Of a stretch of DNA of 64,000 nt, positions 8,961 through 63,625 are shown piece after piece. The translations under genes were made by a program, and so were the position numbers. Origin of the DNA: an uncultured Solirubrobacterales bacterium (lineage in GTDB: Bacteria > Actinomycetota > Thermoleophilia > Solirubrobacterales > 70-9); contig CAVQVQ010000003.1 of the NCBI GenBank assembly GCA_963717235.1, forward strand, positions 310,260-374,259. Direction: 5' to 3'. The notes under the pieces are model-generated. The model ran no database searches and had not been told where the DNA came from. It saw only the letters and a program-made list of their open reading frames with translations. Positions within the stretch are counted from its first letter, which is position 1. Every line of letters begins with the position of its first letter.

Positions 8961-9045
8961 CTGCGGTGAGCCGAGCCCCTGGTTCCGTGACAACGCATGC
9001 GAAGCTCCGACCTGATGCCTCGGTATCAGCGCATCAGGTGCGGCG

Positions 9046-9759
9046 TTGCGCGATACTCGCCCTGTGGAAGAGGAGAAGGACAGCGTAGTCGGGCTGCTCC
9101 GGAGCGTTCCGTTGTTCGCGGAACTCGAGGAGGCCGAGCTTCAGCGGGTGTCGCGTGTGGCGGTACCCCGCTCCTATCCGCCCGCCACGCGCGTCTTCCA
9201 CGAGGGAGACCAGTCGGATGCCTGCTACATCGTGCGGTCGGGGACCTTCAGGGTCACCCGCGAACACCCCGACGGCCGGGCGATCACCCTGGCGACCCTC
9301 GGCGAAGGTGACATCGTCGGGGAGCTGGCGATGCTCGACGGCGAGGTGCGATCGGCCAGCCTCGAGACCCTCGGCTCCGAAGGTGAACTGCTCGCCCTGC
9401 CGGCCAAAGACGTCCGGGCCCTGCTCGAGCGAAACCCCGAGATCACGGTCAAGATGGTCGCCGCCCTGACCCGCCGCCTGCGGGCCACCAACGAGCGCAT
9501 CTCCCGGCAGTCGTTCCAGACCGTTCCGTCCCGGGTAGCCGGCGTTCTGACCCAGCTCGTAGCCGACGAATCCCCGGACGGCTCCAGCCGCGAGGTGACG
9601 ATCCGGATGAACCAGGCCGACCTCGCCCAGCTTGCGGGTACCTCGCGGGAGAGCGTCAGTCGCTTCCTCGCCGACCTCGAGCGCTCGGGCGTGGTCAGGG
9701 CCGGCCGCGGCCAGGTGACCATCCTGGAACCCGCGAAGCTCGGCAACTACATATTCTGA
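9046..9759 (+). CDS. Crp/Fnr-family transcriptional regulator (cNMP-binding domain plus C-terminal HTH)
   Basis: cNMP-binding region LFAELEE..FHEGD..YIVRSG..GDIVGELAMLDG..RSAS. HTH region is QADLAQLAGTSRESVSRFLADLERSG. Start is TTG at 9046, and the exact start is uncertain. Confidence 0.85.
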   Translation: MRDTRPVEEEKDSVVGLLRSVPLFAELEEAELQRVSRVAVPRSYPPATRVFHEGDQSDACYIVRSGTFRVTREHPDGRAITLATLGEGDIVGELAMLDGEVRSASLETLGSEGELLALPAKDVRALLERNPEITVKMVAALTRRLRATNERISRQSFQTVPSRVAGVLTQLVADESPDGSSREVTIRMNQADLAQLAGTSRESVSRFLADLERSGVVRAGRGQVTILEPAKLGNYIF

Positions 9760-22786: not shown

Positions 22787-22936
22787 AGAATCCCAGCAGG
22801 GCGAAACTAGCGGTGGTAAAGGCGGATTCGATCGAAACCTTGGCCGATCAACGGGTCTACCTACAGGTAAGAGGGCAGGGTGGAGTGACTAGACTGACGT
22901 TGGAAGCGGCAGGCAACCACCAACGGGGACAGGCGT

Positions 22937-25519
22937 ATGAAGATCGGGCGTAAGACGGTTGAGGCATCCATTCTCGCGGCGACGGTCTTCCTGCTGGGTG
23001 CTTCTTCAGGGGCTGCGGCAGGTAGCGAAGGTGCCCTCACCCAGAAGTCCGGCGCTGATGCCTGCATCGTCGAGGACAACAATATTGCGGGGGTGACTAG
23101 TTGCGCCGACGGCGTCGCTCTCAACGACAACAGAGGGGTCACCGTCTCCCCGAACGGCAAGAGCGCTTATGTCGCCTCGTACGGCAGCAGCGGCGTCGCC
23201 GTCTTTGACCGGAACACCACGACCGGAGTCCTGACACAAAAAAGCGGCACCGACGCCTGTATCTCCGAGGACGGATCAAGCGGCGACTGCACCGACGGGG
23301 CCGGCCTCAACCTCGCCAGCTCGGTCGCAGTCTCCCCTGACGGCAAGAGCGCCTATGTCGCTTCGCTTGGCGGCGTCGCCGTCTTTGACCGGAACACCAC
23401 GACCGGAGTCCTGACGCAAAAAAGCGGCACCGACGCCTGTATCTCCGAGACCGGCGCAGGCGGCGAATGCACCGACGGCGTCGCTCTCAGCGGCCCCTCC
23501 GCGGTCACCATCTCCCCTGACGGCGAGAGCGCCTATGTTGCCTCGAACTTCAGCGACGCGGTCGCCGTCTTCGACCGGAACACCACGACCGGAGTCCTGA
23601 CGCAAAAAAGCGGCACCGACGCCTGTATCTCCGAGGACGGATCAAGCGGCGACTGCACCGACGGCGTCGCTCTCAGCGGCCCCTCCGCGGTCACCATCTC
23701 CCCTGACGGCGAGAGCGCCTATGTTGCCTCGAACTTCAGCGACGCGGTCGCCGTCTTCGACCGGAACACCACGACCGGAGTCCTGACGCAAAAAAGCGGC
23801 ACCGACGCCTGTATCTCCGAGGACGGATCAAGCGGCGACTGCACCGACGGTGCCGGCCTCGACGGGGCCCGCTCGGCCACAATCTCCCCTGACGGCAACA
23901 GTGTCTATGTCGCCTCGGCCAGCAGCGACGCGGTCGCCGTCTTTGACCGGAACGCCACGACCGGAGTCCTGACGCAGAAGAGCGGCACTGAAGCCTGCAT
24001 CTCCCTTGACGGCTCGAGTGGCGCCTGCGACGTCGGGGTCGGCCTCTTCGGCGCGCGCTCAGTCACCATCTCTCCCGACGGCAAGAGCGCCTACATCGCC
24101 TCGGCTCAAAGCAGAGCCGTCGCTGTCTTTGACCGAAACACCACGACCGGGGTCCTGTCGCAAAAAAGCGGCCTTGACGCCTGTATCACCAATGACAACG
24201 CATTTCAGGGGGTTACCACCTGCACTGACGGGGTCGGACTCGACGGGGCCACATCAGTCACCGTGTCGCCGGATGGCAAGAGCGCCTACGTCGCCTCGCA
24301 GACCAGCGACGCCGTCGCCGTCTTTGACCGCGTCCCAGACACAACCCCGCCCGACGAACCGACCTTCAGCTCAACCACTCCGGCATCCCCGGCGAATGAC
24401 AACACACCAGGGATCAGGGGCACCGCCGAGACTGGTTCCACGGTCAGGCTCTACCCGACCGCCGACTGTTCGGGCGGCTTTGTAGCGACCGGTACCTCAT
24501 CCGAGTTCTCCTCTCCGGGAATCGCGGTGACCGTCGCTGATGATTCGATCACGACCTTCTACGCCAGAGCCGCCGACGGAGCCGGCAACCCCTCGGCCTG
24601 CTCGACCGAGTCGATCACCTATACCGAAGACTCAACCAACCCCCAGACCACTATCGACACCAGCCCTTCAGATCCCACCAGCGACAACACTCCGACCTTC
24701 GAGTTCTCCTCCGATGAACCCGGCTCGACGTTCGAGTGCAGCCTCGTCCCAAGCGGTGCCCCCGACTCCTTTCGCCCTTGCTCGGGCCCCAGCGATACCG
24801 ACACCCCCGCTTTGGCCCTGGCAGACGGCGACTACACCTTCAAGGTCAGCGCGACCGACGCCGCCGGAAACGAGGACCTGACCCCGGCCACCTACGCCTT
24901 CACCGTCGCAACCCCGCCCGACCCGGTGATCTACAAATGCGACGGCAAGGTGGCGACCATCGTCGGCACCAACCAGTCCGAGACCTTGGTCGGGACTTCG
25001 GGACGCGACATCATTGCCGCCCGGGCCGGGGCCGACACGGTCAACGGCAAGGGCGGCAACGATGTCATCTGCGGCGGTGACGGCAAGGACACGCTCAAGG
25101 GCAAGGAAGGCAAGGACACCCTCAGGGGCGACAAAGGCAACGACACGCTCAGGGGCGGCGACAGCGCCGACACGCTCAAGGGCAACGACGGCAAGGACAC
25201 CCTGAAGGGCGAGAACGGCAACGACACCCTGCGCGGCGGCGACAGCGCCGACACGCTGAGGGGCGGAGACGGCAAGGACACCCTGAAGGGTGAGAAGGGC
25301 AACGACACGCTCAAGGGCGAGGGCGGCACCGACAAGATGTACGGCGGTGACAGCAAGGACACGCTCTTCGGTGGTGGCGGAGGCAAGGACAAACTCTTCG
25401 GCCAGGGCGGCTTCGACAAGCTCGACGGTGGTGGCGGAGGCGGCGACGTCTGCAACGGCGGCTCCGGCAAGGATCGCAAGTCCGCACCTCGCTGCGAGAA
25501 GAAGAGCAAGATCCCCTGA
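22937..25519 (+). CDS. Secreted 860-aa protein: signal peptide, seven YVTN-like beta-propeller blades with Cys loops, Ig-like domains and an RTX C-terminal module
   Basis: MKIGRKTVEASILAATVFLLGASSGAAAG signal. Seven repeats of about 62 aa (GVLTQKSGTDACISEDGSSGDCTDG...SPDGKSAYVAS..SDAVAVFDRNTTT). Ig-like region with NTPTFEFSS. GGxGxD nonapeptides and the tail GDVCNGGSGKDRKSAPRCEKKSKIP. Confidence 0.8.
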   Translation: MKIGRKTVEASILAATVFLLGASSGAAAGSEGALTQKSGADACIVEDNNIAGVTSCADGVALNDNRGVTVSPNGKSAYVASYGSSGVAVFDRNTTTGVLTQKSGTDACISEDGSSGDCTDGAGLNLASSVAVSPDGKSAYVASLGGVAVFDRNTTTGVLTQKSGTDACISETGAGGECTDGVALSGPSAVTISPDGESAYVASNFSDAVAVFDRNTTTGVLTQKSGTDACISEDGSSGDCTDGVALSGPSAVTISPDGESAYVASNFSDAVAVFDRNTTTGVLTQKSGTDACISEDGSSGDCTDGAGLDGARSATISPDGNSVYVASASSDAVAVFDRNATTGVLTQKSGTEACISLDGSSGACDVGVGLFGARSVTISPDGKSAYIASAQSRAVAVFDRNTTTGVLSQKSGLDACITNDNAFQGVTTCTDGVGLDGATSVTVSPDGKSAYVASQTSDAVAVFDRVPDTTPPDEPTFSSTTPASPANDNTPGIRGTAETGSTVRLYPTADCSGGFVATGTSSEFSSPGIAVTVADDSITTFYARAADGAGNPSACSTESITYTEDSTNPQTTIDTSPSDPTSDNTPTFEFSSDEPGSTFECSLVPSGAPDSFRPCSGPSDTDTPALALADGDYTFKVSATDAAGNEDLTPATYAFTVATPPDPVIYKCDGKVATIVGTNQSETLVGTSGRDIIAARAGADTVNGKGGNDVICGGDGKDTLKGKEGKDTLRGDKGNDTLRGGDSADTLKGNDGKDTLKGENGNDTLRGGDSADTLRGGDGKDTLKGEKGNDTLKGEGGTDKMYGGDSKDTLFGGGGGKDKLFGQGGFDKLDGGGGGGDVCNGGSGKDRKSAPRCEKKSKIP
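23033..24330 (+). repeat. Coding tandem repeat array, unit 186 bp (62 aa), about seven copies; 23468-23664 is perfectly identical to 23654-23850
   Basis: Direct comparison at offset 186. Outer copies are progressively diverged. Confidence 0.85.
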
Positions 25520-40568: not shown

Positions 40569-40614
40569 AACAGGAAAGATCGAAGGCAGTGACCCCCGAC
40601 CACGGTGACAGAGA

Positions 40615-42135
40615 GTGAGCAGCGGCACGCCGCCAGGCTCCGCCGTGGTCGGGGGGCACGATGCCCCCGGCTTCGACACGGACGGCCTGGATGACTCTCG
40701 CGAGTCCGACCTGGCCCGGGCCGCGGCGGACGGGGACGGCAACGCTTTCGCCCTTCTCTACGAGGCCTATGAATCCCGCATCTACAACTACTGCCTTCGA
40801 ATCCTCGGGGGCACCAGTGACGCCGAGGACGCGACCCAGGAGGCTTTCCTCAAAGTCTTCGGCAGACTGCCAGAGCTCGAGGGCGAGCGGATCAACTTCG
40901 GTGGCTACATGTTCACCGCGGCGCGAAACGCGAGCTACGACATGATCGACCGCCGACGCCGGACCGAGCCCGTGGCCGACCTGCCCGATGACGGCGGCGG
41001 ACACCTCCACCGCGAGCGGGCCGACGCCGACATCGAGCCGGAGCGGGCGGCGATGCTCTCGAACCAGCAGGCCGCGGTCCGGGCCGCCAACGAAAGGCTG
41101 CCCGCACGCCAACGCGAAGTTCTCGCCCTGCGTGAGGTCGAGGGCATGAGCTACGCCGAGATCGCCACCACGATGGAGATGAACACCAACTCGGTCGCCC
41201 AGTTGATCTCCAGAGCACGGACCAGCCTCCGCAGCGAGCTGCACCTCGAGGTCGCTTCGGCAGTAACCCCGTCCTCTCCCGAATGCGAGCGCGCCCTGCC
41301 GCTGATGGCGATGAAGCAGGACGGCGAGCTCGGCGACGCCGCAGACCGTGGCTGGCTCTCCACCCACCTCGCCGGCTGCGCCGGCTGTCGTCTCTCTTCC
41401 GAAGAGATGGCCGAGTCCGGGATCTCCTACCGCGCCTGGGCTCCGGTCGCACCCGGCCTCTACCTCTTCCGCGACACCCTCGCCAAGGCGGCCGAGTCGA
41501 TCGGGGCCGACTGGTCCGGCGTCGAGCGCCCCGCCCCACCGTCCGAACCGGGTCCGGTCAAGGCAGCGCGCTCCGGGCGAAGGACCATCACCACGGCCGC
41601 AGCGACCCTTGTGGTCGCGGTCGTGGCGGGGGTTTTCGCCGGCCAGGTGGCGGATTCGACTCCCGATCCGGCCGACTTCCCCGATGCCTCGACGGTCTCC
41701 TCACCACGGTCCGAAGCGCCTGCCGGAGGTAGCCAGGGCGGCAACCGTCCCGGGCAGGATGCCGGGCAGCCGCAGACCCCGGCAGCGCAGCCTTCCGGGC
41801 CGGCCGCGCAGACCCCGCCGCCGGCCTCGGTGCCCCCCTCGCCCGGGACCGACGACCAGCCGCGGCAGGAAACCCCGGACACCGGCGGGCCCTCCTCGCC
41901 GCCGACCGGCACACCCGGAGGTGACAGCCCCACGGATCCCGGCGGGGGAGGAGGCGGTGGAGGTGCACCGGTCACGCCACCGACCCCGCCGACCCCGGCC
42001 GATCCTCCGAGGGATCCCAAGCAGCCGACCGATCCAACTCCGTCGGACCCACCGACCACCGGGCCGCCGGTCCTCGTACCGGTCGATCCCAAGAACCCGC
42101 CGCTCAATCCGTCGAGGCCGCCGCGCATTCCCTGA
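40615..42135 (+). CDS. ECF sigma factor fused to a ZAS-type anti-sigma domain, one TM helix and a Pro-rich extracytoplasmic tail
   Basis: Region 2 (FALLYEAYESRIYNYCLRIL..DAEDATQEAFLKVF) and region 4 (LPARQREVLALREVEGMSYAEIA) are present. These are followed by C-x(n)-H-x3-C-x2-C (THLAGCAGC), TM helix ITTAAATLVVAVVAGVFAG and about 170 aa of P/T/G-rich sequence. Confidence 0.8.
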   Translation: MSSGTPPGSAVVGGHDAPGFDTDGLDDSRESDLARAAADGDGNAFALLYEAYESRIYNYCLRILGGTSDAEDATQEAFLKVFGRLPELEGERINFGGYMFTAARNASYDMIDRRRRTEPVADLPDDGGGHLHRERADADIEPERAAMLSNQQAAVRAANERLPARQREVLALREVEGMSYAEIATTMEMNTNSVAQLISRARTSLRSELHLEVASAVTPSSPECERALPLMAMKQDGELGDAADRGWLSTHLAGCAGCRLSSEEMAESGISYRAWAPVAPGLYLFRDTLAKAAESIGADWSGVERPAPPSEPGPVKAARSGRRTITTAAATLVVAVVAGVFAGQVADSTPDPADFPDASTVSSPRSEAPAGGSQGGNRPGQDAGQPQTPAAQPSGPAAQTPPPASVPPSPGTDDQPRQETPDTGGPSSPPTGTPGGDSPTDPGGGGGGGGAPVTPPTPPTPADPPRDPKQPTDPTPSDPPTTGPPVLVPVDPKNPPLNPSRPPRIP

Positions 42136-53658: not shown

Positions 53659-54456
53659 ATGAGTAAGTCCGCCGCTTCCGGCTTCGCCGACCTCACGGGC
53701 AAGACCGCCCTGGTCACCGGCTGCGGCAGCGCCGAGGGCATCGGTTTCGCTATCGCCCGGGCGCTCGGCCGGCAGGGGGCCGGGGTGGCGATCTCCTCGA
53801 CCACCGAGCGCATCCACGACCGCGCCGCCGAGCTCCGGGGCCAGGGGATCGAGGTCAGCGCCCACGTCGCCGACCTGATCGACCCCTCCGAGGCGACCCG
53901 CCTGGTCGAAGAAGCCACCGCCTGGCACAGCAGCCTCAACGTGCTGGTCAACAACGCCGGCATGAGCCAGGTCGGGACCGAGGACCCTGGTCGTGAGTTC
54001 AAGGACATCAGCCACGCCGAGTGGCGGGCCGGCATCGACCAGAACCTCGATCTCGCTTTCAACGTGACCCGGGCCGCGCTGACCGCAATCACCGACTCGA
54101 AGGACGGCCGGATCATCTTCGTCGGCTCGGTCACCGGCCCGATGGTCAGCGCCCCCGGCAACCCGGCCTACAGCGCCGCCAAGGCCGGCATCGACGGCCT
54201 GATGCGCTCGCTGGCGATCGAGCTCGGGCCGACCGGCACCACGGTCAACTCGATCAACCCCGGCTGGATCGAAACCGCCAGCGCCCTGCCCGAGGAGGTC
54301 GTCGCCGGCGAACACACCCCGGTCGGCAGGCCCGGCACCCCGGACGAAGTCGCAGCCGCCGCCGTACTGCTCGCCGCCCCCGAGGCCTCCTACATAACCG
54401 GCCAGACCCTGGTCGTCGACGGCGGCAACATCATCCAGGAGATCAAGGGATCCTGA
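53659..54456 (+). CDS. SDR-family oxidoreductase (FabG-like)
   Basis: TALVTGCGSAEGIGFAIA, NNAG and YSAAKAG (YxxxK). Start taken at the ATG at 53659. Confidence 0.85.
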   Translation: MSKSAASGFADLTGKTALVTGCGSAEGIGFAIARALGRQGAGVAISSTTERIHDRAAELRGQGIEVSAHVADLIDPSEATRLVEEATAWHSSLNVLVNNAGMSQVGTEDPGREFKDISHAEWRAGIDQNLDLAFNVTRAALTAITDSKDGRIIFVGSVTGPMVSAPGNPAYSAAKAGIDGLMRSLAIELGPTGTTVNSINPGWIETASALPEEVVAGEHTPVGRPGTPDEVAAAAVLLAAPEASYITGQTLVVDGGNIIQEIKGS

Positions 54457-54475
54457 GGCGGCCCGGCCGCCGACC

Positions 54476-54517
54476 GCGAATTCGCAAGGGCCCCGGCCGA
54501 ATTCGCCTGAGTTCGAA
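54476..54517. promoter_or_regulatory. Cluster of AT-centred palindromes (GCGAATTCGC, CGAATTCG, TTCGAA) just upstream of the first island promoter motif
   Basis: Centres at about 54480.5, 54501.5 (21 bp apart) and 54514.5. Unusual in this GC-rich context. Candidate operator. Confidence 0.35.
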
Positions 54518-54523
54518 GTCGCC

Positions 54524-54550
54524 TGTCAGATCTTCCGTCCGCCCACCGAC
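54524..54550 (+). promoter_or_regulatory. Island motif copy e: TGTCAGA-N16-CGAC (ECF-like promoter candidate) upstream of the DUF6569-like operon
   Basis: TGTCAGAtcttccgtccgcccacCGAC. It lies 34 nt upstream of the SD-preceded ATG at 54585. Confidence 0.55.
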
Positions 54551-54615
54551 ACCTTCCGGGCAAGCGAAGAAGCGGAGGGGCGAGATGACGACCACACGAG
54601 AAGATGAAGTGACGA

Positions 54616-55599
54616 TTGAGGACTACCAGCGCGAGACCGCTGACGGTCGGCGAGCCGGATGTCTCGGGACCGATCGCGGTCTACCCGGTATTCGGGCCGG
54701 CGCCGGTCCAGCAGTACACCTCGATGAGCCGCGCCCAGGCGCTCGGCTTCAAGGTCAACGAGCAGCCCGGCGGTGGCTCGGTGCGCGACGTGGTCGTATC
54801 CAACCCGACCGGTTCCGCGGTTCTGATCTACGAAGGCGAAGAGGTGGTCGGTGGTCAGCAGAACCGCACCTTCGACAAGAGCCTGCTCGTGGCCCCGGGC
54901 GAAACCGTGATCGCGCCGGTCAGCTGTGTCGAGCAGGGCCGCTGGGACGGCTCCCGCAACGCCGAGGACTTCCTGCCTTCGATGCAGGCGGCCGACCCGG
55001 ACCTGCGCCGGCGCAAGGCCAGCTCCTCCCACCGGGCCCGGGTGTCCGGGATGGAAGAGCGCGCCGACCAGGGCGAGGTCTGGGCAGCCGTGTCCGACCG
55101 CTCGACCAGCCTCGGCGTGCATTCGCCGACCGGTGCCTCCAGCGATGCTTTCGAAAGCCACCGCGACCGTCTGCAGGCGAGTGCTTCGCAGATCAACCTG
55201 CACGAAGGGCAGGTCGGCATGGTCTTCCAGGTCGGAGGCAGGGTGCTCGCACTCGACCTGGTCAGCCGGCCGGAGGTCTTCGCCGATCTCCACGCGCCGC
55301 TGGTCCAGGGCTACTGCCTCGACGCGCTCGGTCGCAACACCCCGGCAAGGGTGAGGGGCACCAGGTATGCCGAGCGCTTCCTGCACAAGGTGGCCGGCAA
55401 CCGAGTCTTCGAAAACGACGGCATCGGCCTCGGCCGGGGCTTCCGTTTCGAGAACGATCGCGCGGTCGGCACCGGGCTGGTCTCGGGCGAGGAGCTGATC
55501 CAGCTCTCGGTCTTCACCAACCGACCCGAGCGCCCGGAAGCCACCGCGCGACCGACCCGCCGCACACGGATCAACCGTCCGTCGAGGCGTCACCCTTGA
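54616..55599 (+). CDS. DUF6569 / ARPP-1-like protein; start ambiguous (possible +1 frameshift from ATG at 54585)
   Basis: LTVGEPDVSGPIAVYPVF and VLIYEGEEVVGGQQNRTFDKSLLVAPGETVIAPVSCVEQGRW match my memory of that family. The first in-frame start is TTG at 54616 with no SD. A strong GGAGGGG-ATG at 54585 is in the other frame, and GC3 switches frame at about 54637-54640. Confidence 0.55.
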   Translation: MRTTSARPLTVGEPDVSGPIAVYPVFGPAPVQQYTSMSRAQALGFKVNEQPGGGSVRDVVVSNPTGSAVLIYEGEEVVGGQQNRTFDKSLLVAPGETVIAPVSCVEQGRWDGSRNAEDFLPSMQAADPDLRRRKASSSHRARVSGMEERADQGEVWAAVSDRSTSLGVHSPTGASSDAFESHRDRLQASASQINLHEGQVGMVFQVGGRVLALDLVSRPEVFADLHAPLVQGYCLDALGRNTPARVRGTRYAERFLHKVAGNRVFENDGIGLGRGFRFENDRAVGTGLVSGEELIQLSVFTNRPERPEATARPTRRTRINRPSRRHP

Positions 55600-55856
55600 G
55601 CCGCGGCAAGGAGGCCCGGCCCAGGACCCGGCCCGCGGACCCGTGCGCCTTCTGTGGCGTGCGGGTCCCGCGCCGCGGGTCCACCGACAAAGGCGAACCC
55701 AGGCTCTGCCACCCCTGCGACTCCGGAAGCAGCTACCAGTTCGCGGTGAAGCGGACTGTCCGTATGTTCACCCCGTTCGCCGAGAGCCGCTGGCGCCGCC
55801 CGGGCCTGGTCGACGCCGAAGCGACGCTCGGACTCAGGCCAAGGCCCAGAAGGTGA
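55596..55856 (+). CDS. 86-aa zinc-ribbon protein (CxxC...CxxC)
   Basis: TTG overlaps the upstream stop (TTGA). Product is SRGKEARPRTRPADPCAFCGVRVPRRGSTDKGEPRLCHPCDSGSSYQF... GC3 is very high. It is hidden inside shadow ORF 54021..55856. Confidence 0.55.
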   Translation: MSRGKEARPRTRPADPCAFCGVRVPRRGSTDKGEPRLCHPCDSGSSYQFAVKRTVRMFTPFAESRWRRPGLVDAEATLGLRPRPRR

Positions 55857-56305
55857 GACCGTGCGTGATCTGCGGCCGGTCGAAGCTCGACGGGTCGTGG
55901 CACGAAGACATCGCCGTCTGTCGTGAGTGCGAGCTCGCCCGCCGGCCGTCGGAATCGACTGAGGTCACACCCCGGCAGTTCGTCGCCGGCTCGGGCTGGC
56001 GCCTGGCGACCACCATGCTCGACCACCCGCACCAGTACACCGTTCGAGACCTGAGCAATCACGACGCCCGCAAGACCACCGCGCTCGGCCACGCCGAGTT
56101 CGAGAGCTTCGCGAGGCTCACCGCCGACCGCGGCCGCCCCGAAAGATGGGGCAGCGCCACCTACACCTACCTCGAGCTGGACGGCTGGCAGTACTGGACG
56201 ATGGGCAACCCGCCGGAGGCGACGACCATCATCAACCGGAGGCCGGTCAGCCCCGAAGCCCGGGCGGAGATCGACGAGCAGGTCCGCCGGTTCCGAGTCG
56301 CTTAG
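55853..56305 (+). CDS. 150-aa protein: N-terminal zinc ribbon plus uncharacterised C-terminal domain (PHQYTVR ... DGWQYWTMG ... IINRRP)
   Basis: GTG overlaps the upstream stop (GTGA). N-terminus is RPCVICGRSKLDGSWHEDIAVCRECE. It is the C-terminal part of ORF 55643..56305. Confidence 0.6.
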   Translation: MRPCVICGRSKLDGSWHEDIAVCRECELARRPSESTEVTPRQFVAGSGWRLATTMLDHPHQYTVRDLSNHDARKTTALGHAEFESFARLTADRGRPERWGSATYTYLELDGWQYWTMGNPPEATTIINRRPVSPEARAEIDEQVRRFRVA

Positions 56306-56326
56306 ACCCTGAAGGCTGTCGCGGCG

Positions 56327-57226
56327 CTACTCCTCCGGAACCAGGGAGAAGAGCGGCCGGCGGCATTCGGGGCAGAGCAGTTCGAGCTGACTCTCCCTGT
56401 CGACCGTCCGGCCATCGGTTGCATCGCCGGCCCAGCCGCACGAGCAGTCGATGCTTCCCATCTCACCGATGGCGGCCAGCAGATTGTTCCCGCCGCCGTT
56501 CGGGCTCCGGCGTGTCGCTTTCTTCACCTGGTGGTCGATGGCCCACCGCGGACCGAGCGGTTGGCGTTTCCCCCGGAGCTCCAGGTTGAGATTGGCGGCG
56601 AAGGTCCTGGCGGAGTAACCGGGGCCTCTGAGCTGCAGCTCTCCTTCGCGGGTCGGGTTCAGGGAAGCCAGCCTCGGGCCGTACTTCTCCCGGAGGATCC
56701 AGAGGACCTCCTCGAAGCGCGGCATCGCCTGCTTCATTCCGACCTCGCGCCAGATGACCCGGTCGCCGTGACTGAGCACGGTCCAGCCGTCCTCTTCGCC
56801 TTCGACCTCCTCGAAGTCCCAGGTGATCTCCAGGTCCTCCCCGGCCAGGTCCGGAAGCTGCGAGGCCGACTTCAGCTTGCTCTGCTCGAAGCGTTCGAAC
56901 CTCTTGTCCCACTCGGCCTGCAGGGCCCGGCTCCGGGCCATCTGCTCCTCCGTGAACCGCAGCTCGCAGCCCTCCGGTGACTTCGCGTTTTCGGGAGTCC
57001 AGGGGATGTGTGCGGCCTCGTCTACCAGGCCCATTCTCCGGTTGTACGCCCGGGCGCTGTCGTTCATGAGCTTGAAGCTCCCGTCCGGGTCGTTCACGGG
57101 GTCTTCCGGATACGCGTTCTCGCTCACCGGTCCCTCGAGCGGGTTCAGCAGTCGATCGATCCACCGCTCTTCTTCGCTGCGGTCGTCTTCGGCCACGGTC
57201 GGCTCCCCTCGTCGCTGTCCTTCCAA
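56327..57226 (-). CDS. Hypothetical acidic protein with C-terminal Cys cluster (CSCGW...CPEC)
   Basis: ORF 56327..57322. Start candidates are TTG at 57226 (7 nt after motif copy a, leaderless) or GTG at 57196 (after GGGGAG). The ORF-track start would overlap the upstream gene and the motif. Confidence 0.5.
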   Translation of the reverse strand: MEGQRRGEPTVAEDDRSEEERWIDRLLNPLEGPVSENAYPEDPVNDPDGSFKLMNDSARAYNRRMGLVDEAAHIPWTPENAKSPEGCELRFTEEQMARSRALQAEWDKRFERFEQSKLKSASQLPDLAGEDLEITWDFEEVEGEEDGWTVLSHGDRVIWREVGMKQAMPRFEEVLWILREKYGPRLASLNPTREGELQLRGPGYSARTFAANLNLELRGKRQPLGPRWAIDHQVKKATRRSPNGGGNNLLAAIGEMGSIDCSCGWAGDATDGRTVDRESQLELLCPECRRPLFSLVPEE

Positions 57227-57233
57227 CAGTTGA

Positions 57234-57260
57234 GTCGGCTCAGGGAGCCGAAATCTGACA
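57234..57260 (-). promoter_or_regulatory. Island motif copy a: TGTCAGA-N16-CGAC
   Basis: Minus strand reads TGTCAGAtttcggctccctgagcCGAC, in the gap between the stop at 57285 and the next gene. Confidence 0.55.
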
Positions 57261-57284
57261 ACGGGGGCGCCGTGAGCCTTCCGG

Positions 57285-58346
57285 CTACCCGAAGACCAGG
57301 CCGAAAAGGCCAGAGACGACAATCCAGATCACGACGAGGACCAGGCCGACCACGGGCAGCCACAGGGCGATGATGGTTGCCCACATGAGCAGGCCGATGA
57401 CCGCCATGACCAGAAAGTAGGCGAAGCTCAGTACCGCGTTGACCACCGTCGCCGAAGCCCTGAGGATCGAGCCGAGGGCCGCCGAGGCAGGCTGCAGGCG
57501 GGAGGGAGCTCGTGACACCGGAACCAGGTCAGGCAGCCGGTTCCATTCCGGCCCGGTCTGCTCGAGGTCGTCTCCGCTCACGAGTCGGCCTACGGTCGCC
57601 GGGGTGATCTGGCTGCGTCTGGTGGCGAACCTCCGGACCCGCTGTTCGCTCGTCTGGCGCAGCGTCGGCACCCGGTAGCGCCGGGCGAGCGCGGCGAAGG
57701 CTTCCTGCTCCTCTTCGTCAACCGGCTCTTGCGGAAGCACGATCGCGATCGGACGGGCCTTCTCAGCGCGGAACCCGTCCTCATGAAGCTCGATCCGGCC
57801 CCAGGCCTGAATCACTCCGGTCACCCGGAACTCGCCAGACTCGCGGAACGGGCCGCGCTTGCGGTGGGTTCTGTCCGGCTGGCAGGACCACGGATGGAAG
57901 GCGTAGAGGCCGCAGCTGCAGTCGGGACCGGGCGGGGACAGGCAGTGCCTCGGCAGCCGCCTTTCGCCACCCGGACCACACTCCGCGACAGTGGCCCGAC
58001 CGCCCTGTCGCCATTCGAAACCGCCGTAGCCGCGCAGCCGGCAGCCTTCGCCGTCGGCAAGGTCCAGGTCCCAGGCTCTCACGCCGATCATCAGCCCCGC
58101 GATCAACGGCGGCTCCGGGACTTCGGCAGTGCGCTCGAGCAGGGAAGCCTGCCCTGTCAAGCCGGCACCTCGTCCGGGTCTCGAGCCGGCTCCGGTCGGC
58201 GCTCGGGCGCAGGCGATGGACCGGGCTCCTGGCGATCCGGCTCCCGACGTCCCGGCCCGGCCGGAGGAGCCGGCGCCTTCTCGGGCGCCTCGAGCGGCTC
58301 CACCGTGATCGTCCTCGAAGGTCCGGGAAGGCTCATGGCCGCTCAC
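57285..58346 (-). CDS. Hypothetical protein with a conserved Cys motif (RAW...A.C...H...PDCSCGLYAF ... GFRAEKARP) and two or three C-terminal TM helices
   Basis: GTG overlaps the vWA stop (GTGA). The first about 62 codons are G/A/R/S low-complexity. An alternative reading is a 59-aa P/E-rich ORF (58157..58336) followed by a TTG start at 58160 (TTGA overlap). Confidence 0.55.
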   Translation of the reverse strand: MSGHEPSRTFEDDHGGAARGAREGAGSSGRAGTSGAGSPGARSIACARAPTGAGSRPGRGAGLTGQASLLERTAEVPEPPLIAGLMIGVRAWDLDLADGEGCRLRGYGGFEWRQGGRATVAECGPGGERRLPRHCLSPPGPDCSCGLYAFHPWSCQPDRTHRKRGPFRESGEFRVTGVIQAWGRIELHEDGFRAEKARPIAIVLPQEPVDEEEQEAFAALARRYRVPTLRQTSEQRVRRFATRRSQITPATVGRLVSGDDLEQTGPEWNRLPDLVPVSRAPSRLQPASAALGSILRASATVVNAVLSFAYFLVMAVIGLLMWATIIALWLPVVGLVLVVIWIVVSGLFGLVFG

Positions 58347-59614
58347 TCCTCGCCGCGCGGCTTGCGACCCCGGCGACGGCCCTTCTGGTGGTAGTCGGCC
58401 ATCATGCGCTTGCGGGCCGCGGCCTCGTCGACTTCCATTTCAGTGATGTTCTGGGCCATCCAGCGGTCCTCGGCTTCCCACTCGGCGATGTCAGCCTGGG
58501 GCATGTTCGAGCGATCCTTCGACCGCAGCCGATGCTTCGAACTCCTCATCCTTCTGAGGGCCTGCCGCTTGCGGCCCATCTTCAGATCCTCCGCCGCCAG
58601 TCGCTTGTCGCGCTGGGACTGCTGGAAGGTCAGCTCGGTATCGACCTGCTCGTCCTTGACCCGGCCGGCTGCCTGGTCGCCCGGGACCACGTTCACGTTG
58701 ACCGGGATCTTGGCCAGCTTGCTCTCCATGGTCTCGGTATCGACCCAGCGCAGTTCGATCTCGCAGACCTGCGCCGGCCCGAGCACGGCGATGTCGGGCA
58801 CGTCGATCTCGAAGAGCAGCTTGCGGTTCTCGTCGGCGACCAGCTCACCGAGTTCGACCATGAAGCCGCTCTCGATCTGCGACACGGAGAGGTCGTTGAA
58901 CAGCCTGATTTCGCTGACCGAGTCGCTCGGCTTCACGGTCAGGCTGACCGCCTGCGCGACCTGCTCGAGCAGACCCTCGACCTCGGAGGCCAGCTTGGCA
59001 CCGGCTTCGTCCGCGTCCTCGGCGAAGTGGGAGTTTCCGGACCCGCCGCGACTGATCGCCTCGAGCAGGTCTTCGTCGTAGCCGCGGCCGATACCGATGG
59101 TGGAGATAGTGATGCCTTCCCTGGAACCACCGCCGGCGAAGCTCTCGAGCTCCCGGTGGTCGGTGACTCCCCGATTGGCGTGCCCGTCGGAGAGCAGCAC
59201 CAGGGTCGTCGAAGCGCCGTCGGAGGTGCGCCCGCATTCCTGGACGCCGCGCAGCAGGCCGCCGCCGAGGTTGGTCATCCCGCCGGTTCCGATCTGGTGG
59301 AGCACCTGTCGGATGGCGGTGCCGTCGCCGACCGGAGCGGAAGGAACCGCCACCTGGATCTCGTCGTCGAATACGACCAGACCGAAGACGTCATCGGCGT
59401 GGAGCCGGCCGATCAGGCTGTCGATCGCCTGGAGTGCGGTGACCAGCTGTCCGCCGGCCATCGAGCCGCTGCGGTCCAGCACCACCTGCAGTCGGGCCGG
59501 GTCACGGCGCCTGTCTCCCTTCAGCCCCGGTGCCGCTATCTCCAGCAGCAGATTGACCGTCTCACCCTGATCGACGGCGATTACATTGAAGTCCAGCTTT
59601 GCGTTTAGGTCCAT
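58343..59614 (-). CDS. von Willebrand factor type A (vWA) domain protein with basic C-terminal tail
   Basis: ATG at 59614 (MDLNAKLDFNV...). MIDAS residues are DRSGSM, GGMTNL and LLSDGHAN. C-terminus is K/R-rich. Confidence 0.8.
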   Translation of the reverse strand: MDLNAKLDFNVIAVDQGETVNLLLEIAAPGLKGDRRRDPARLQVVLDRSGSMAGGQLVTALQAIDSLIGRLHADDVFGLVVFDDEIQVAVPSAPVGDGTAIRQVLHQIGTGGMTNLGGGLLRGVQECGRTSDGASTTLVLLSDGHANRGVTDHRELESFAGGGSREGITISTIGIGRGYDEDLLEAISRGGSGNSHFAEDADEAGAKLASEVEGLLEQVAQAVSLTVKPSDSVSEIRLFNDLSVSQIESGFMVELGELVADENRKLLFEIDVPDIAVLGPAQVCEIELRWVDTETMESKLAKIPVNVNVVPGDQAAGRVKDEQVDTELTFQQSQRDKRLAAEDLKMGRKRQALRRMRSSKHRLRSKDRSNMPQADIAEWEAEDRWMAQNITEMEVDEAAARKRMMADYHQKGRRRGRKPRGEE

Positions 59615-59623
59615 CCCCGGAGA

Positions 59624-59650
59624 GTCGGCCGACGGCTCCGATTTCTGACA
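59624..59650 (-). promoter_or_regulatory. Island motif copy b: TGTCAGA-N16-CGAC, 9 nt upstream of the vWA ATG (leaderless transcript predicted)
   Basis: Minus strand reads TGTCAGAaatcggagccgtcggcCGACtctccggggATG. Confidence 0.55.
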
Positions 59651-59676
59651 GCGGCCCAGCCTCCCCGCTTCCACGG

Positions 59677-59976
59677 CTACTCGGGCGAGAAGAAGATGGC
59701 GTAGACGAATGCGGCCGCCCAGCCGAACATGAACAGTGCCACCAGACCTCCGACGGCCCAGGGAATCACCGCCCAGACCGCCCTGTCGATCCAGTCGGCC
59801 ACGGTCGGCGGCTCACCGTCCTTCTGCCGACTGTCCCGTCGCATGCAATAGGACTCGTGGAGGTCGTAGATCAAGGCGCCCACCACGTACAGCGGGATCA
59901 GCATGATGTAGAGGATCCAGTTGCCGATCAGGTATTCGATGCCGGCGATGGAGGTCATCGGCGGTCCGGCCCGCAT
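59677..59976 (-). CDS. Small membrane protein (99 aa, two or three TM helices)
   Basis: IGNWILYIMLIPLYVVGALIY and AVIPWAVGGLVALFMFGWAAAFVYAIFF. Confidence 0.6.
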   Translation of the reverse strand: MRAGPPMTSIAGIEYLIGNWILYIMLIPLYVVGALIYDLHESYCMRRDSRQKDGEPPTVADWIDRAVWAVIPWAVGGLVALFMFGWAAAFVYAIFFSPE

Positions 59977-60007
59977 GTCGGCGTCGAGCAGTTCATCTGA
60001 GACAGGC

Positions 60008-60034
60008 GTCGCCCGCGCGCCGGCCGATCTGACA
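60008..60034 (-). promoter_or_regulatory. Island motif copy c: TGTCAGA-N16-CGAC
   Basis: Minus strand reads TGTCAGAtcggccggcgcgcgggCGAC, between the stop at 60063 and the membrane-protein gene. Confidence 0.5.
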
Positions 60035-60062
60035 ACCCGCCGGGGTCAGGCGCGCACGGCGC

Positions 60063-60452
60063 TCACCAGCCGTCCCACTCGAGCACGGTGTGGGGCGGGG
60101 GCGGCACGCCCGCGTCTCGAGCCCGGCGCACCAGCTCGACCCGCCGATCGGACTCTTCGATCGTCAGCGGCTCCCCGTTCTTCGGCGTCGTGCAGTCGAT
60201 GACCGGCAACTTCTCGTATCTCGCACGGACCTCTTCGTAGGAGAGCTCGCCGATGGGGACGAAGAGGTTGCATGCGTGGATGAAAGACCTCGCAGAGAAG
60301 TTCCTCGCCTGCCACGCCGTCTGATCTCCCGAGGCGATCGCCCCGGGACACCGCTCCAGTTGCTCCCGCCAGAAATCCTCGTCGGTCTCCGGACAGTCGC
60401 TCATCGTCTTCCGTCTGAGGAGTTTCAGCCGGCGCCGGGCGAGGGTCTCCAC
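60063..60452 (-). CDS. Hypothetical protein (ends ...HTVLEWDGW); 5' end ambiguous
   Basis: GTG at 60452 or ATG at 60404 (MSDCPETDEDFW). An ATG at 60544 overlaps the upstream stop and opens MGDKGKACVRAWQNYAGA in another frame. This suggests a frameshift in the ggggcccggg run (about 60484-60493) or a separate 39-aa ORF. Confidence 0.45.
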   Translation of the reverse strand: METLARRRLKLLRRKTMSDCPETDEDFWREQLERCPGAIASGDQTAWQARNFSARSFIHACNLFVPIGELSYEEVRARYEKLPVIDCTTPKNGEPLTIEESDRRVELVRRARDAGVPPPPHTVLEWDGW

Positions 60453-60536
60453 CTCGTCGAACTCCTCCCGGGGCTTCGGCCTCTCGCCCGGGCCCCGGCG
60501 TAGTTCTGCCAGGCCCGGACGCAGGCCTTGCCCTTG

Positions 60537-60824
60537 TCACCCATGTCCCGAGTCCGGCGGGTCGTAGTAGACGATCGGCTCGCGCTTCTCCATGAGGCGT
60601 ATGTCGCGCACGGCCCTTCGCGCCGCCCATCTCGCTCCGCGTTCGGTCAGGGCGGTGCCGCTCTTTCCGGGCAGCCACGGAGCGCGGTTCCACTTGCTCG
60701 GGCGGACGTTCCGCACCTCGACCCGCCAGCTCCACCACCCCGGCAGCGCCGGCTTGAGCTCGATCTTCAGGGGTACGCCCGCGCCCTCGTCGGTGCTGCT
60801 GCGCCGTCGGTCGTCTTCGCTCAC
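60537..60824 (-). CDS. Hypothetical 95-aa protein
   Basis: GTG at 60824 overlaps the stop of the REC-like gene (GTGA). Product is SEDDRRRSSTDEGAGVPLKIELKPALPGWWSWRVEVRNVRPSKWNRAPWLPGKSGTALTERGARWAARRAV... Confidence 0.5.
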   Translation of the reverse strand: MSEDDRRRSSTDEGAGVPLKIELKPALPGWWSWRVEVRNVRPSKWNRAPWLPGKSGTALTERGARWAARRAVRDIRLMEKREPIVYYDPPDSGHG

Positions 60825-61276
60825 GACCCGGCCCCCGCTGCTGCGCGAACGATGTACTTCGGCTGGCTGCCGGTCGAGACGTCCTCGACCGCGACCGGGA
60901 GACGGCCCGGCAGAGTCTCTATCGCCCGCTTCATCCGGTCGCGACCCTCGGGGTTGGCCGTGTGGAGGGTGATCCCGTCGCGCGGCCACATCGGCCGGTC
61001 CTCGGCGCCGTGGAGCTCCTCGAGGAAGTCGATCACCTGGTAGCCCTGGCCGCAGGCGACGTCTCCGTCCAGGTCGTTGTCGAGGGAGAGCTCGACCACA
61101 CGCTCCTGGAGGATCAGCATGCAGACCTCCCGGACCGTGCGCAGGTGGACCCAGCCTTCGGGGGCCAGGCGGAACTCGTTGTCGTCGTCGAGGAAGACGC
61201 GGATCTCGCCCTCACGGGGGAAAGGCCGTCCTTCGGCGTCCCTGAATGCGGTTCTGTAGTTGTGGATCTCAGTCAT
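60821..61276 (-). CDS. Receiver-like domain protein resembling the cyclic-phosphate-processing REC (cPPR) family seen in phage/RNA-repair contexts
   Basis: IRVFLDDDNEF..APEGWVHLRTVREV..VVELSLDNDL...GQGYQVIDFLEE...ITLHTANPEGRDRMKRAI. Assignment is from memory of that family's layout. Confidence 0.5.
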   Translation of the reverse strand: MTEIHNYRTAFRDAEGRPFPREGEIRVFLDDDNEFRLAPEGWVHLRTVREVCMLILQERVVELSLDNDLDGDVACGQGYQVIDFLEELHGAEDRPMWPRDGITLHTANPEGRDRMKRAIETLPGRLPVAVEDVSTGSQPKYIVRAAAGAGS

Positions 61277-61431
61277 CGCTCGCCTTTCCTCTCCCGCTGC
61301 TCCCGCAGGGCACGAGCCCAGCCGGCGGTCACCGGCTGCACTTCGGTTCTCGTACTTCCGCCGACCTTCTTCCAGCCCCGGCGGCCGACGGGCACCCAGC
61401 CCTCGCGTTTCTCATCACTCCTGTCCGACAT
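61273..61431 (-). CDS. Small basic hypothetical protein (52 aa)
   Basis: GGAGGTG-N6-ATG at 61431 gives MSDRSDEKREGWVPVGRRGWKKVGG... The stop overlaps the next start (ATGA). Confidence 0.4.
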   Translation of the reverse strand: MSDRSDEKREGWVPVGRRGWKKVGGSTRTEVQPVTAGWARALREQRERKGER

Positions 61432-61539
61432 GAACGTCACCTCCATCGAATCGGGCTTTCGCACCGTGTCCCTGTGGGATCGGTTGCGGCGGCGTCATCG
61501 GGCCCGGACCCTCGACCGCTCTGAATGGACGGTGCGTAT

Positions 61540-61586
61540 GTCGCACCTGATGGAGAGAGTCTGACAGCGGCACCGCTTTCTGACAA
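61540..61586 (-). promoter_or_regulatory. Island motif copies d2 (61540-61566, perfect TGTCAGA-N16-CGAC) and d1 (61559-61585, TGTCAGA-N16-AGAC), overlapping in tandem
   Basis: Minus strand reads TTGTCAGAaagcggtgccgcTGTCAGActctctccatcaggtgCGACa. It lies at the head of the minus-strand gene string. Confidence 0.55.
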
Positions 61587-61706
61587 CCCCTTGCGGCGGG
61601 CCCCCGGGGAACCGGTCAGTCTTCGTCGAGCGCGCGTCGCACCATCCTCCTGCGGTCAGAGGTCTGAAAGAGTTGGTGCCGAGCCGCAGACCGAAGGAGA
61701 CCCGCA

Positions 61707-62291
61707 TTGGCTGATGACAGAACGCTGGGCGAGAGGTTCGACCTCGCCCTCGAAATGGCCCACCGCTACCACGGTGACCAGAAGAGGAAAGGCGCCGAGA
61801 CCCCGTACTTCGGCCACATACTCGGGGTCGCGTCGCTGGTCATCGACGAAGGCGGAGACGAAGACGAAGCGATCGCCGCCCTGCTCCACGACGCCCCCGA
61901 GGACCAGGGAGGGGAAGAGACCCTGAAGGAGATCCACGACAAGTTCGGGGGTCGGGTGGCGCGAATCGTCTTCGGACTGAGCGACACCTTCGACGACCCG
62001 AAGCCGCCCTGGAAGAAGCGCAAGGAGGACTATCTGGCCCACCTTCGCGAGGAGACCGACCGCTCGGTCCTGCTGGTCTCGATCGCCGACAAGCTCCACA
62101 ACGCCCGCTCGATCGTGCTCGACCAGGCCGACTGCGGCGAAGCGGTCTGGGAGCGGTTCAAGGGAGGCAGGGAAGGCAGCCTCTGGTACTACGGCGAGCT
62201 GGTCAAGATCTTCGACGAGCGCTTCCCCGGCGCCCTGGCCGACGAGTTCAGGCGCACGGTCGAGCGCATCGGAGGCGGAGAGGCAGGATGA
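61707..62291 (+). CDS. HD-domain protein, RelA/SpoT-type (p)ppGpp-hydrolase-like (small alarmone hydrolase-like)
   Basis: HRYHGDQKRKGAETPYFGHILGVA and AALLHDAPED. TTG start after GAAGGAG. Confidence 0.6.
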   Translation: MADDRTLGERFDLALEMAHRYHGDQKRKGAETPYFGHILGVASLVIDEGGDEDEAIAALLHDAPEDQGGEETLKEIHDKFGGRVARIVFGLSDTFDDPKPPWKKRKEDYLAHLREETDRSVLLVSIADKLHNARSIVLDQADCGEAVWERFKGGREGSLWYYGELVKIFDERFPGALADEFRRTVERIGGGEAG

Positions 62292-63625
62292 GCGCCCCGG
62301 GCGAGCTCGCGGCCCTCGTCGCCAGTGAAGCCCGACCACTGACCGGCGCGCCCGGCGACCACGACGAGCTGCTGGAGATGGTCGGCGACGCACAGGTGGT
62401 CCTGCTCGGCGAGGCCAGCCACGGCACCCACGAGTTCTACCGCCAGCGGGCGGTGATCACCAAGCGCCTGATCGAGGAGAGGGGCTTCACCGCGGTGGCT
62501 GTGGAGGCCGACTGGCCCGACGCCTACCGGGTCAACCGCTACGTCAAGGGGGCGAACGACGACGCCGACTCCGAGGCTGCCCTCGGCGGCTTCCGGCGCT
62601 TCCCGACCTGGATGTGGAGGAACGCCGACGTGCTCGACTTCGTCGGCTGGCTGCGCGCCCACAACGAGCCGGCCCGCGAGCCGGCCGGCTTCTACGGCCT
62701 CGACCTCTACTCGCTCTACCGCTCGATCGAGGCGGTCGTCTCCTATCTCGACGGGGTCGACCCGCCGGCCGCCGAAGAGGCCCGCCGGCGCTACTCATGC
62801 TTCGAGAGCTTCGAAGAAAGCCAGGATTACGGCTACGCGGTCTTCGCCGGGATCTCCTCGTCCTGCCGGGCCGGTGTCTACGAACAGCTCAGGCAGCTGG
62901 TCGAAAGCGGCGAGGGCTACCTGCGCCGCGACGGCATCGCCGCCGAAGACGAGCAGTTCCACGCCGAGGAGAACGCGCGGGTGGTGGTCGCGGCCGAGGA
63001 GTACTACCGCGGCATGTTCTCCAGCCCCGACAGCTCCTGGAACCTGCGCGACAGCCACATGGCCGGCACTCTCGAGCGCCTGGTCTCTCACCTCGGACGC
63101 CACGGCGGCAGCAAGACCGTGGTCTGGGCCCACAACTCCCACATCGGCGACGCCCGCCAGACCGCGATGTCGGACCGCGGCGAGCACAACCTCGGCCAGC
63201 TGGTCCGCAGGAGCTTCCCCGGACGCACCGCCCTGGTCGGCTTCACCACATACGACGGCACCGTCAGCGCCGCCTCCAACTGGAACGAGCCGTGCGAGAG
63301 GAAGCGGGTCCGCCCGGCGCTCGAAGGAAGCGTCGAGAGCCTTCTCCACGAGGCCGGGCAGCAGGCCGGCAATGCGGACTTCTGGCTGCCCTTCACCCCC
63401 GGCACCCCGCTGGCCCAAGCCCTGGACCAGCCGATGCTGGAGCGTGCGATCGGTGTCATCTACCGGCCCGAGTCCGAGCGGATCAGCCACTACTTCAACG
63501 CTCGTCCCGCCGCCCAGTTCGATGCTTTGATCCACTTCGACCGGACCCGCGCGGTGGAACCACTCGAGCCGACCGGTGAGTGGCAGGCCGGCGAGCCCCC
63601 CGAGACCTACCCGACGGCGATCTGA
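62288..63625 (+). CDS. Erythromycin esterase (EreA/ChaN-like) family protein
   Basis: VVLLGEASHGTHEFY, AVEADWPDA, FYGLDLYS and VWAHNSHIGDAR. ATGA overlap with the HD gene. Confidence 0.75.
   Translation: MSAPGELAALVASEARPLTGAPGDHDELLEMVGDAQVVLLGEASHGTHEFYRQRAVITKRLIEERGFTAVAVEADWPDAYRVNRYVKGANDDADSEAALGGFRRFPTWMWRNADVLDFVGWLRAHNEPAREPAGFYGLDLYSLYRSIEAVVSYLDGVDPPAAEEARRRYSCFESFEESQDYGYAVFAGISSSCRAGVYEQLRQLVESGEGYLRRDGIAAEDEQFHAEENARVVVAAEEYYRGMFSSPDSSWNLRDSHMAGTLERLVSHLGRHGGSKTVVWAHNSHIGDARQTAMSDRGEHNLGQLVRRSFPGRTALVGFTTYDGTVSAASNWNEPCERKRVRPALEGSVESLLHEAGQQAGNADFWLPFTPGTPLAQALDQPMLERAIGVIYRPESERISHYFNARPAAQFDALIHFDRTRAVEPLEPTGEWQAGEPPETYPTAI

Follow-up and report, generated by a model that had tools for sequence, protein, structure and literature searches.

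A promoter-like TGTCAGA-N16-CGAC motif conserved across Thermoleophilia probably marks genes read by an ECF-like sigma factor

Promoters of the ECF41 group of extracytoplasmic function (ECF) sigma factors have the form TGTCACA-n16-CGTC, and those that have been mapped yield a 22/23-bp untranslated region with a ribosome-binding site, while predicted 5'-untranslated regions run from 20 to 199 nt (PMC3426412). The original prediction on the DNA described here had given this consensus correctly. Actinomycetes also possess RecA-independent DNA-damage promoters that work by sigma adaptation and carry a PafBC-type motif, tGTCgg(N10)tA(N3)T (PMC8635444). The ECF re-classification paper mentions neither TGTC-type motifs, nor Thermoleophilia, nor a cytoplasmic partner with a von Willebrand factor A (vWA) domain; vWA occurs there only as part of a membrane anti-sigma factor in ECF289, an unrelated arrangement. 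Here we describe a 7-kb island within a 64-kb stretch of DNA from an uncultured Solirubrobacterales bacterium (GCA_963717235.1, contig CAVQVQ010000003.1, positions 310,260 to 374,259; hereafter the window) that contains five perfect copies of the motif TGTCAGA-N16-CGAC. These copies are likely promoters for an alternative, ECF-like sigma factor, and the motif is conserved across a whole bacterial class, the Thermoleophilia. Like ECF41 promoters, the motif combines a 7-nt, TGTCA-containing putative -35 box with a spacer of 16 +/- 1 nt and a 4-nt, CG-containing putative -10 box, but both boxes differ in sequence, being TGTCAGR and CGAC here and TGTCACA and CGTC in ECF41. Four traits of the proposed system are unusual: its sigma factor would act in trans, its leaderless cassettes form a mosaic in which each has its own promoter, a vWA protein stands in place of any recognisable anti-sigma factor, and a riboswitch lies directly behind one of the promoters. 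We infer which sigma factor reads the motif, where transcription starts and what signal induces it.

The copies in the window are the following, with one overlapping near-copy:

54524-54550 (+): candidate promoter copy a, exact motif, between an SDR gene stop at 54456 and ATG 54585; faces the ARPP-1 operon.
57234-57260 (-): candidate promoter copy b, exact motif, between a stop at 57285 and a start at 57196; faces a gene for a 289-aa protein.
59624-59650 (-): candidate promoter copy c, exact motif, ending 9 nt before the vWA ATG at 59614; the mRNA is predicted to be leaderless.
60008-60034 (-): candidate promoter copy d, exact motif; faces a gene for a 99-aa membrane protein.
61540-61566 (-): candidate promoter copy e, exact motif; faces an S-adenosylmethionine (SAM) riboswitch, then a 52-aa open reading frame (ORF) and the cREC_REC operon.
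61559-61585 (-): copy e', TGTCAGA-N16-AGAC, one mismatch (AGAC for CGAC), overlapping copy e upstream.

An exact search returned the same five copies that had been proposed, on the same strands, and none elsewhere in the window. All five are intergenic and each faces the next gene, again as predicted. In 100 dinucleotide shuffles of the window, which is 67% G+C, 0.05 perfect copies were expected and no shuffle reached five, and the spacer sequences of the five copies are unrelated to each other. Allowing up to one mismatch adds two sites where chance would give about 1.8: copy e', which had also been foreseen, and a site at 8055-8081 (+) that lies within an open frame (7999-8829, +). Genes were placed using third-position G+C and ORF maps, Pfam, and the gene calls of a sister assembly (L081) that is 99% identical to the window and runs 5.7 kb past its end. 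Two distances in the original prediction hold, although each had been assigned to the wrong copy: it is the 59624-59650 copy that ends 9 nt before the vWA ATG, and the 57234-57260 copy that is followed after 7 nt by an in-frame TTG (57226). The leaderless mRNA proposed for the latter is not supported, as GTG 57196, preceded by GAGGGGAG, is the likelier start and the L081 gene call agrees.

Several of these placements recur in relatives. The arrangement of copy a upstream of ARPP-1 is found in L001, L002 and 15 other loci (L numbers denote individual loci), and the position of copy c, with the motif followed after 9-10 nt by ATG, is kept before vWA orthologues in most Thermoleophilia-type loci. 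Copy e is kept in L001, and its L002 version has one mismatch in the -35 box; the TGTCAGA box of copy e' is kept in both, and this copy is possibly a second, weaker promoter. Within 54000-62500 no sigma-70-type consensus promoter was found, and the island region gave no intrinsic-terminator-like site.

For a wider view of the motif, we took 80 loci around orthologues of the vWA gene from species-representative genomes, 1.36 Mb in total with the window included. The search of related genomes that had been suggested as a check gave 43 exact matches and, with the relaxed pattern [TC]GTCAG[AG]-N15-17-CGAC, 198 matches against 14 in a control of reversed sequence. Spacer length peaks sharply at 16 nt (154 instances), with 33 instances at 15 nt, 11 at 17 nt and 4-9 (about 5) at each other length. 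In position matrices built from 153-198 instances, information is confined to the two boxes and the spacer is not conserved. The family-wide consensus is YGTCAGR / CGAC with a weak W after the -35 box; CGAC is followed by Y (83%) and C (62%), and the -10 box has A in third position, where T is common. In 82 of the 198 instances the first plausible start codon stands 9 nt past CGAC, and in a further 15 it stands 10 nt past it, together 97/198. When vWA orthologues of only 43-85% identity are lined up on their start codons, the motif keeps its place, usually with exactly 9 nt between CGAC and ATG and otherwise about 30-35 nt upstream of a GGAGG-type ribosome site. Two boxes, a fixed spacer and a fixed distance to the start codon together form the signature of a -35/-10 promoter with mostly leaderless transcripts. 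Leaderless mRNAs are common in Actinobacteria. With the conservation of the motif and the self-associated sigma genes described below, these features bear out the ECF-type promoter that had been proposed.

A scan of metagenomes for the motif followed by ATG gave a similar picture. On contigs above about 64% G+C, the ATG opens long ORFs with high third-position G+C, encoding vWA proteins, ARPP-1, OB-HD and dGTPase-like HD proteins or HD nucleases, and proteins like one that we label unkD; on low-G+C contigs, which serve as an internal control, it opens no long ORF. Viral contigs yielded only single, scattered matches at chance level and no motif clusters, so the motif does not represent a phage promoter family. 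Searching the literature for the heptamer by itself turned up nothing but primers and unrelated text.

Read as a promoter, the motif would have TGTCAGA as its -35 element and CGAC as its -10 element, separated by the 16-nt spacer, with transcription beginning about 7-10 nt past CGAC. The vWA mRNA would then start at or beside its ATG and be leaderless, and copies a, b and d would give leaders of about 25-40 nt. A clear Shine-Dalgarno sequence precedes the genes behind copies a and b; none is evident before the gene behind copy d. Copy e offers a separate view of the start site because its leader opens with a riboswitch:

61440-61531 (-): SAM-I riboswitch aptamer, Rfam RF00162, 59 bits against a gathering score of 44.4, E=6.9e-12.

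The match is complete (model positions 1-108 of 108), and the aptamer begins 9 nt past the CGAC of copy e, practically the distance that separates start codons from CGAC elsewhere. Its 3' P1 strand includes the GGAGG Shine-Dalgarno sequence serving ATG 61431. Formation of P1 requires that the transcript start no more than 9 nt past CGAC, and the leaderless genes require a start no more than 10 nt past it. ECF promoters generally start transcription 7-9 nt downstream of the -10 box, and both limits would fit a start at that distance here. The operon would then need an active sigma factor together with low SAM, an arrangement that suggests an AND gate of stress signal and methyl-donor status. 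The pairing of promoter and riboswitch is also present in L001 and L002. Using our own model built from five copies, we found further SAM riboswitches in L009, L018, L024, L038 and L074; outside L001, L002 and the window, these have no motif with them and stand before either the small 'PYRTIxVEP' ORF together with an unkD-like gene or other cargo. In its full-length aptamer, scoring above the gathering threshold, and in the Shine-Dalgarno sequence within the 3' P1 strand, the element conforms to the SAM-I class. It departs from the usual members of that class in having no recognisable methionine or SAM gene behind it, but small ORFs and cREC_REC here and unkD-like genes elsewhere, and in standing here directly behind an ECF-type promoter.

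To look at what the motif precedes, the proteins encoded behind it were clustered across the related loci. The clusters comprise vWA proteins (47), GGACT proteins (18), ARPP-1 (17), a TPR-like family that includes the 289-aa protein of the window (13), a zinc-ribbon family (10) and sigma-like proteins of about 200-230 aa (cluster C5, nine members, with a related singleton, C30). The island sigmas span 199-267 aa and have no Pfam domain besides regions 2 and 4, with Sigma70_r4_2 above its cutoff and Sigma70_r2 near its own. TIGR02937 (sigma70-ECF) covers the full length at 41.5 bits, just below the cutoff of 42.9, the best solved relatives are the ECF factors SigE, SigH, RpoE and SigL, and source annotations name family members 'sigma-70 family' or 'sigma24'. 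Searching with a profile of the family detects a member in 24 loci, and each of these bears the motif (Fisher p = 5e-5 for the association of sigma presence with two or more motifs). Thirteen of the 24 sigma genes, standing either directly after the vWA gene or alone, carry a motif of their own with GTG or ATG 9 nt past CGAC, which indicates ECF autoregulation. Other sigma-bearing islands have several motif copies and carry cREC, unkD-like, PDDEXK and GGACT genes, yet the DNA retrieved around them lacks a vWA gene. Separate sigma and cargo islands are therefore normal in this group, which supports action in trans. From this co-occurrence and self-association, we regard it as reasonably likely that the sigma family of the related islands is what reads the motif.

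In L018, L042 and L074, about 40 conserved nucleotides (agaaagttccatccgaNacaagcgctatcttgt) that include a short inverted repeat lie about 100 nt upstream of motif-less, divergent sigma genes and may control sigma expression as a separate kind of site. With a general ECF profile, comparable small sigmas turn up near vWA in no more than three loci outside the Thermoleophilia, which does not amount to a general association. These different, small ECF-like sigma genes are at 3062-3679 (-) in L077, 5727-6362 (-) in L076 and 8679-9272 (-) in L051, and the one in L077 stands behind a PafBC-type motif.

The original prediction held that the island itself has no sigma gene, and profile searches agree; they also confirm that the only ECF sigma in the window is a fusion protein near 40.6 kb:

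40609-42135 (+): gene for an ECF sigma fused to an anti-sigma-like segment, 508 aa, with an HxxxCxxC zinc-finger-like motif, one membrane span and a long proline-rich tail.

This protein scores 102 bits against TIGR02937 and 47 bits against the island-sigma profile, where members exceed 150. As the window has no member of the family and the fusion is unrelated to it, the cognate sigma is placed in trans. The cognate sigma would be a member of the divergent family just described, whose proteins of about 200-230 aa contain only regions 2 and 4. Roughly half of the related Thermoleophilia islands would encode it inside, often right after vWA and behind its own motif, a copy that would give it positive autoregulation; in this genome it would be encoded elsewhere and act in trans.

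Several observations weigh against this assignment. Hidden Markov models of the island sigmas, run against all six-frame ORFs of the window and of the 5.7 kb beyond it in L081, found no family member, and two profile searches of a large protein collection found none on a contig as long as the window's. That extra L081 DNA also holds no sigma gene and no further motif. Eleven of the 24 island sigma genes lack an upstream motif and run divergently from a motif-driven gene, an anti-sigma factor could not be recognised, and the link between sigma and motif consists of co-occurrence and self-association only. Since the loci were gathered through the vWA gene, the picture of the regulon is also biased toward vWA neighborhoods.

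Beyond the boxes themselves, the comparison with ECF41 extends to the placement of promoters upstream of the sigma gene and its neighbors, and L044 has TGTCACA before its sigma gene. The differences are more extensive. The island sigmas do not have the SnoaL-like C-terminal extension of about 100 aa that defines ECF41, and SigJ, an ECF41 member, matches the island-sigma profile poorly (E=0.0095). The targets here are a large mosaic set including vWA and ARPP-1 rather than COE genes, and most of the mRNAs are predicted to be leaderless. Because the boxes, the sigma extension, the SigJ match and the targets all differ, we rejected membership in ECF41. Classical ECF modules, such as RpoE, SigW and mycobacterial SigE and SigH, share with the system proposed here a small sigma having only regions 2 and 4, a target promoter at the sigma's own gene (13 loci here), a dedicated regulon and a CG-containing -10 box. 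They differ in that no recognisable anti-sigma gene is present here, the conserved partner being a cytoplasmic vWA protein with its own promoter; in that in many genomes, this one included, the sigma is not beside its targets; and in that the island sigma falls just below the curated ECF superfamily cutoff.

Outside the Thermoleophilia, orthologues of the same vWA gene are found behind another motif. Within 160 nt upstream of the vWA orthologue, 12 of 26 non-Thermoleophilia Actinomycetota loci carry a PafBC-type motif (L041, L049, L052, L053, L058, L060, L066, L070, L073, L077, L078 and L080; example TGTCATACCCCCACCGCATAGT), where about 0.006 per locus would be expected. Across these other-Actinomycetota loci there are 63 PafBC-type matches against 18 in the control, with the ECF-type motif at background (6 against 3), and in the motif-rich loci it is the PafBC pattern that is at background (36 against 25). 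The two motif types are complementary between lineages. Further genes behind the PafBC-type motif in the other Actinomycetota are an ARPP-1 gene and helicase-like and DUF222-like genes. Judging from these motifs, it seems that one and the same gene neighborhood is governed by a DNA-damage activator in one lineage and by the ECF-type motif in the other. The PafBC-type promoters before vWA orthologues hint at a nucleic-acid-stress regulon. A pafBC mutant of M. smegmatis shows a lower level of MSMEG_5511, which has a von Willebrand factor annotation (PMC5656591); we take this as a lead only. No recA or lexA gene is present in any related locus examined.

This likeness brings up the possibility that the TGTCAG box, instead of being a -35 element, is bound by a transcription factor through which the housekeeping holoenzyme is adapted, in the manner of PafBC at its -26 element. 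The box resembles the PafBC element (PMC8635444), sharing a TGTC(A/G)G core with it; the motifs before vWA orthologues in the 12 loci, and their complementarity with the ECF-type motif, speak for the same idea, as do the ARPP genes that have been reported beside WYL-domain factors (PMC9503650). A gene set rich in nucleases and helicases is a further likeness to PafBC-dependent promoters. A PafBC promoter, however, has a housekeeping -10 hexamer, and no A/T-rich TANNNT hexamer is conserved here at the required place, there being almost no information between the boxes or past CGAC. On this ground, and with the PafBC pattern at background in motif-rich loci, we rejected a PafBC promoter as such. 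If the start codon is taken as +1, the box lies about 8 bp further upstream than a -26 element, the spacing to CGAC is as rigid as in -35/-10 promoters, and the recurring, motif-bearing regulator of the islands is a sigma family instead of a WYL factor. We consider a factor-binding site unlikely. That the promoters are instead read by the ECF/anti-sigma-like fusion at 40609-42135 has in its favor that no other sigma-70-family gene was detected in the 64 kb and that the fusion gene is 12 kb away from the island. No motif stands upstream of its gene, though, its profile scores are those of a standard ECF factor outside the island family, and tblastn with the protein finds no homologue in any of the 80 related loci, making such a role very improbable.

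The motif could also be a cassette boundary, that is, a recombination or insertion site of a mosaic island, in keeping with a gene content behind it that differs greatly between close relatives and with the presence of a copy at nearly every cassette. Against it, only 11 bases in two boxes at a fixed spacing are conserved, and the motif always faces a gene and is set 9-10 nt from its start codon. The motif has no inverted-repeat structure, the annotated genes include no recombinase (no search aimed at recombinases was made), and viral contigs show no motif clusters; we give this explanation hardly any weight. Chance clustering, or a recent local duplication of one promoter region, has nothing in its favor beyond the shortness of the motif. 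We rejected it, with a residual probability that is practically negligible, on the basis of the shuffles, the unrelated spacers, and the class-wide conservation seen in the related-locus counts. Promoters for an ECF-like sigma factor thus remain our preferred reading of the five copies.

Under such a sigma factor, the regulon would be a mosaic of individually promoted cargo comprising vWA, ARPP-1, HD hydrolases, cREC, GGACT, nucleases, helicases and RecC. At other loci, the genes found behind the motif encode RecC, an SF1 helicase fused to an RNase-H-like nuclease, a ResIII/DEAD helicase, a PD-(D/E)XK nuclease, an EEP nuclease, an OB-HD protein and an AAA ATPase. Ribose or ADP-ribose moieties have been suggested as the target of ARPP, which adjoins WYL factors and HIRAN domains (PMC9503650). 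Such a cargo set may point to a response to nucleic-acid or nucleotide stress. A joint reading, which we offer tentatively and regard as possible but rather doubtful, is that across the Thermoleophilia a dedicated ECF-like sigma replaces PafBC-type sigma adaptation and drives a DNA-damage or nucleic-acid-stress regulon of interchangeable, individually promoted, mostly leaderless cassettes around vWA as a sensor or sigma regulator, with SAM riboswitches gating part of it. The window would then hold a cargo island whose sigma is encoded in another island.

Thermoleophilia, and Solirubrobacterales among them, are abundant soil bacteria, and to our knowledge no regulon has been experimentally characterised in them. 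If the promoter reading is true, the motif offers a handle on gene regulation in these organisms, with a regulon that is readable straight from sequence and that includes many uncharacterised genes. It would also represent a new sigma/promoter pair, usable as an orthogonal expression part, and would join a widespread cytoplasmic vWA protein, ARPP-1, cREC and HD proteins in one stress response. With one orthologous gene standing behind this motif in one actinobacterial class and behind a PafBC-type motif elsewhere, the exchange would clearly exemplify the rewiring of a regulon between classes.

The 7-kb island is organized as five predicted transcription units, one per motif copy. The unit of copy a covers ARPP-1 and the RING-like ORF(s), and that of copy c the vWA gene, the 59-aa ORF and unkD. 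The genes are the following:

54585-55599 (+): ARPP-1 domain protein gene, Pfam PF20208 E=1.6e-75; frameshifted in this assembly.
55643-56305 (+): ORF(s) after ARPP-1, with a weak Prok-RING_2 finger (PF14445, 22.1 bits, just below cutoff) and a conserved C-terminal domain.
56327-57196 (-): gene for the 289-aa protein (cluster C3), whose relatives have TPR-like repeats; GTG start at 57196.
57285-58160 (-): unkD, with C-terminal membrane segments; homologues in nine loci and in the sigma-bearing island L315.
58157-58336 (-): small conserved 59-aa ORF (MSLPGPSRTITVEP...), a gene call in L081, with a proline/glutamate-rich tail.
58343-59614 (-): cytoplasmic vWA-domain protein gene, the conserved core of the island, Pfam VWA E=4.9e-16.
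59677-59976 (-): gene for a small membrane protein, 99 aa, 91% identical in L001.
60063-61431 (-): operon behind the riboswitch, with gene calls in L081 and the same order in L001.
61273-61431 (-): 52-aa ORF, the first behind the SAM riboswitch.
60821-61276 (-): cREC_REC protein gene, Pfam PF20274 E=2.1e-18.
60063-60452 (-): gene for a 113-129-aa protein, last in the operon, preceded by short ORFs.

Past copy e, a divergent HD_4 gene runs from 61707. The vWA protein has 712 homologues, mostly in Solirubrobacterales and other Thermoleophilia, and a sequence search of the PDB with it gave generic vWA matches only. Four island proteins have no NCBIfam or Pfam match, and PADLOC models of anti-phage defence recognised no family among nine island proteins and one island sigma.

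The ARPP-1 start is ATG 54585, 34 nt past copy a, with GGAGG 8 nt before it. Alignment of the sister assemblies places one extra A at 54636 relative to L081, and it is this base that breaks the ARPP-1 frame in the window; it represents either an assembly indel or a recent pseudogene. Split tblastn matches in several genes of L001 and L002 suggest that these assemblies are prone to indels. Homologues of the ORF(s) at 55643-56305 stand behind the motif in L004, L005 and L024.

The 59-aa ORF at 58157-58336 overlaps, in a different frame, what looks like the N-terminal part of the next gene. Its homologues are found behind the motif in L004, L006, L045 and L068 and behind a SAM riboswitch in L009, L018 and L074, and the ORF is probably coupled to the vWA gene. 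Elsewhere in the window, a large gene at about 22898-25519 (+) contains tandem repeats at 23102-24330, amounting to 6.6 copies of a 186-bp unit with 81% identity, and at 25073-25410 about ten 27-bp units that encode GDGNDTLKG-like repeats.

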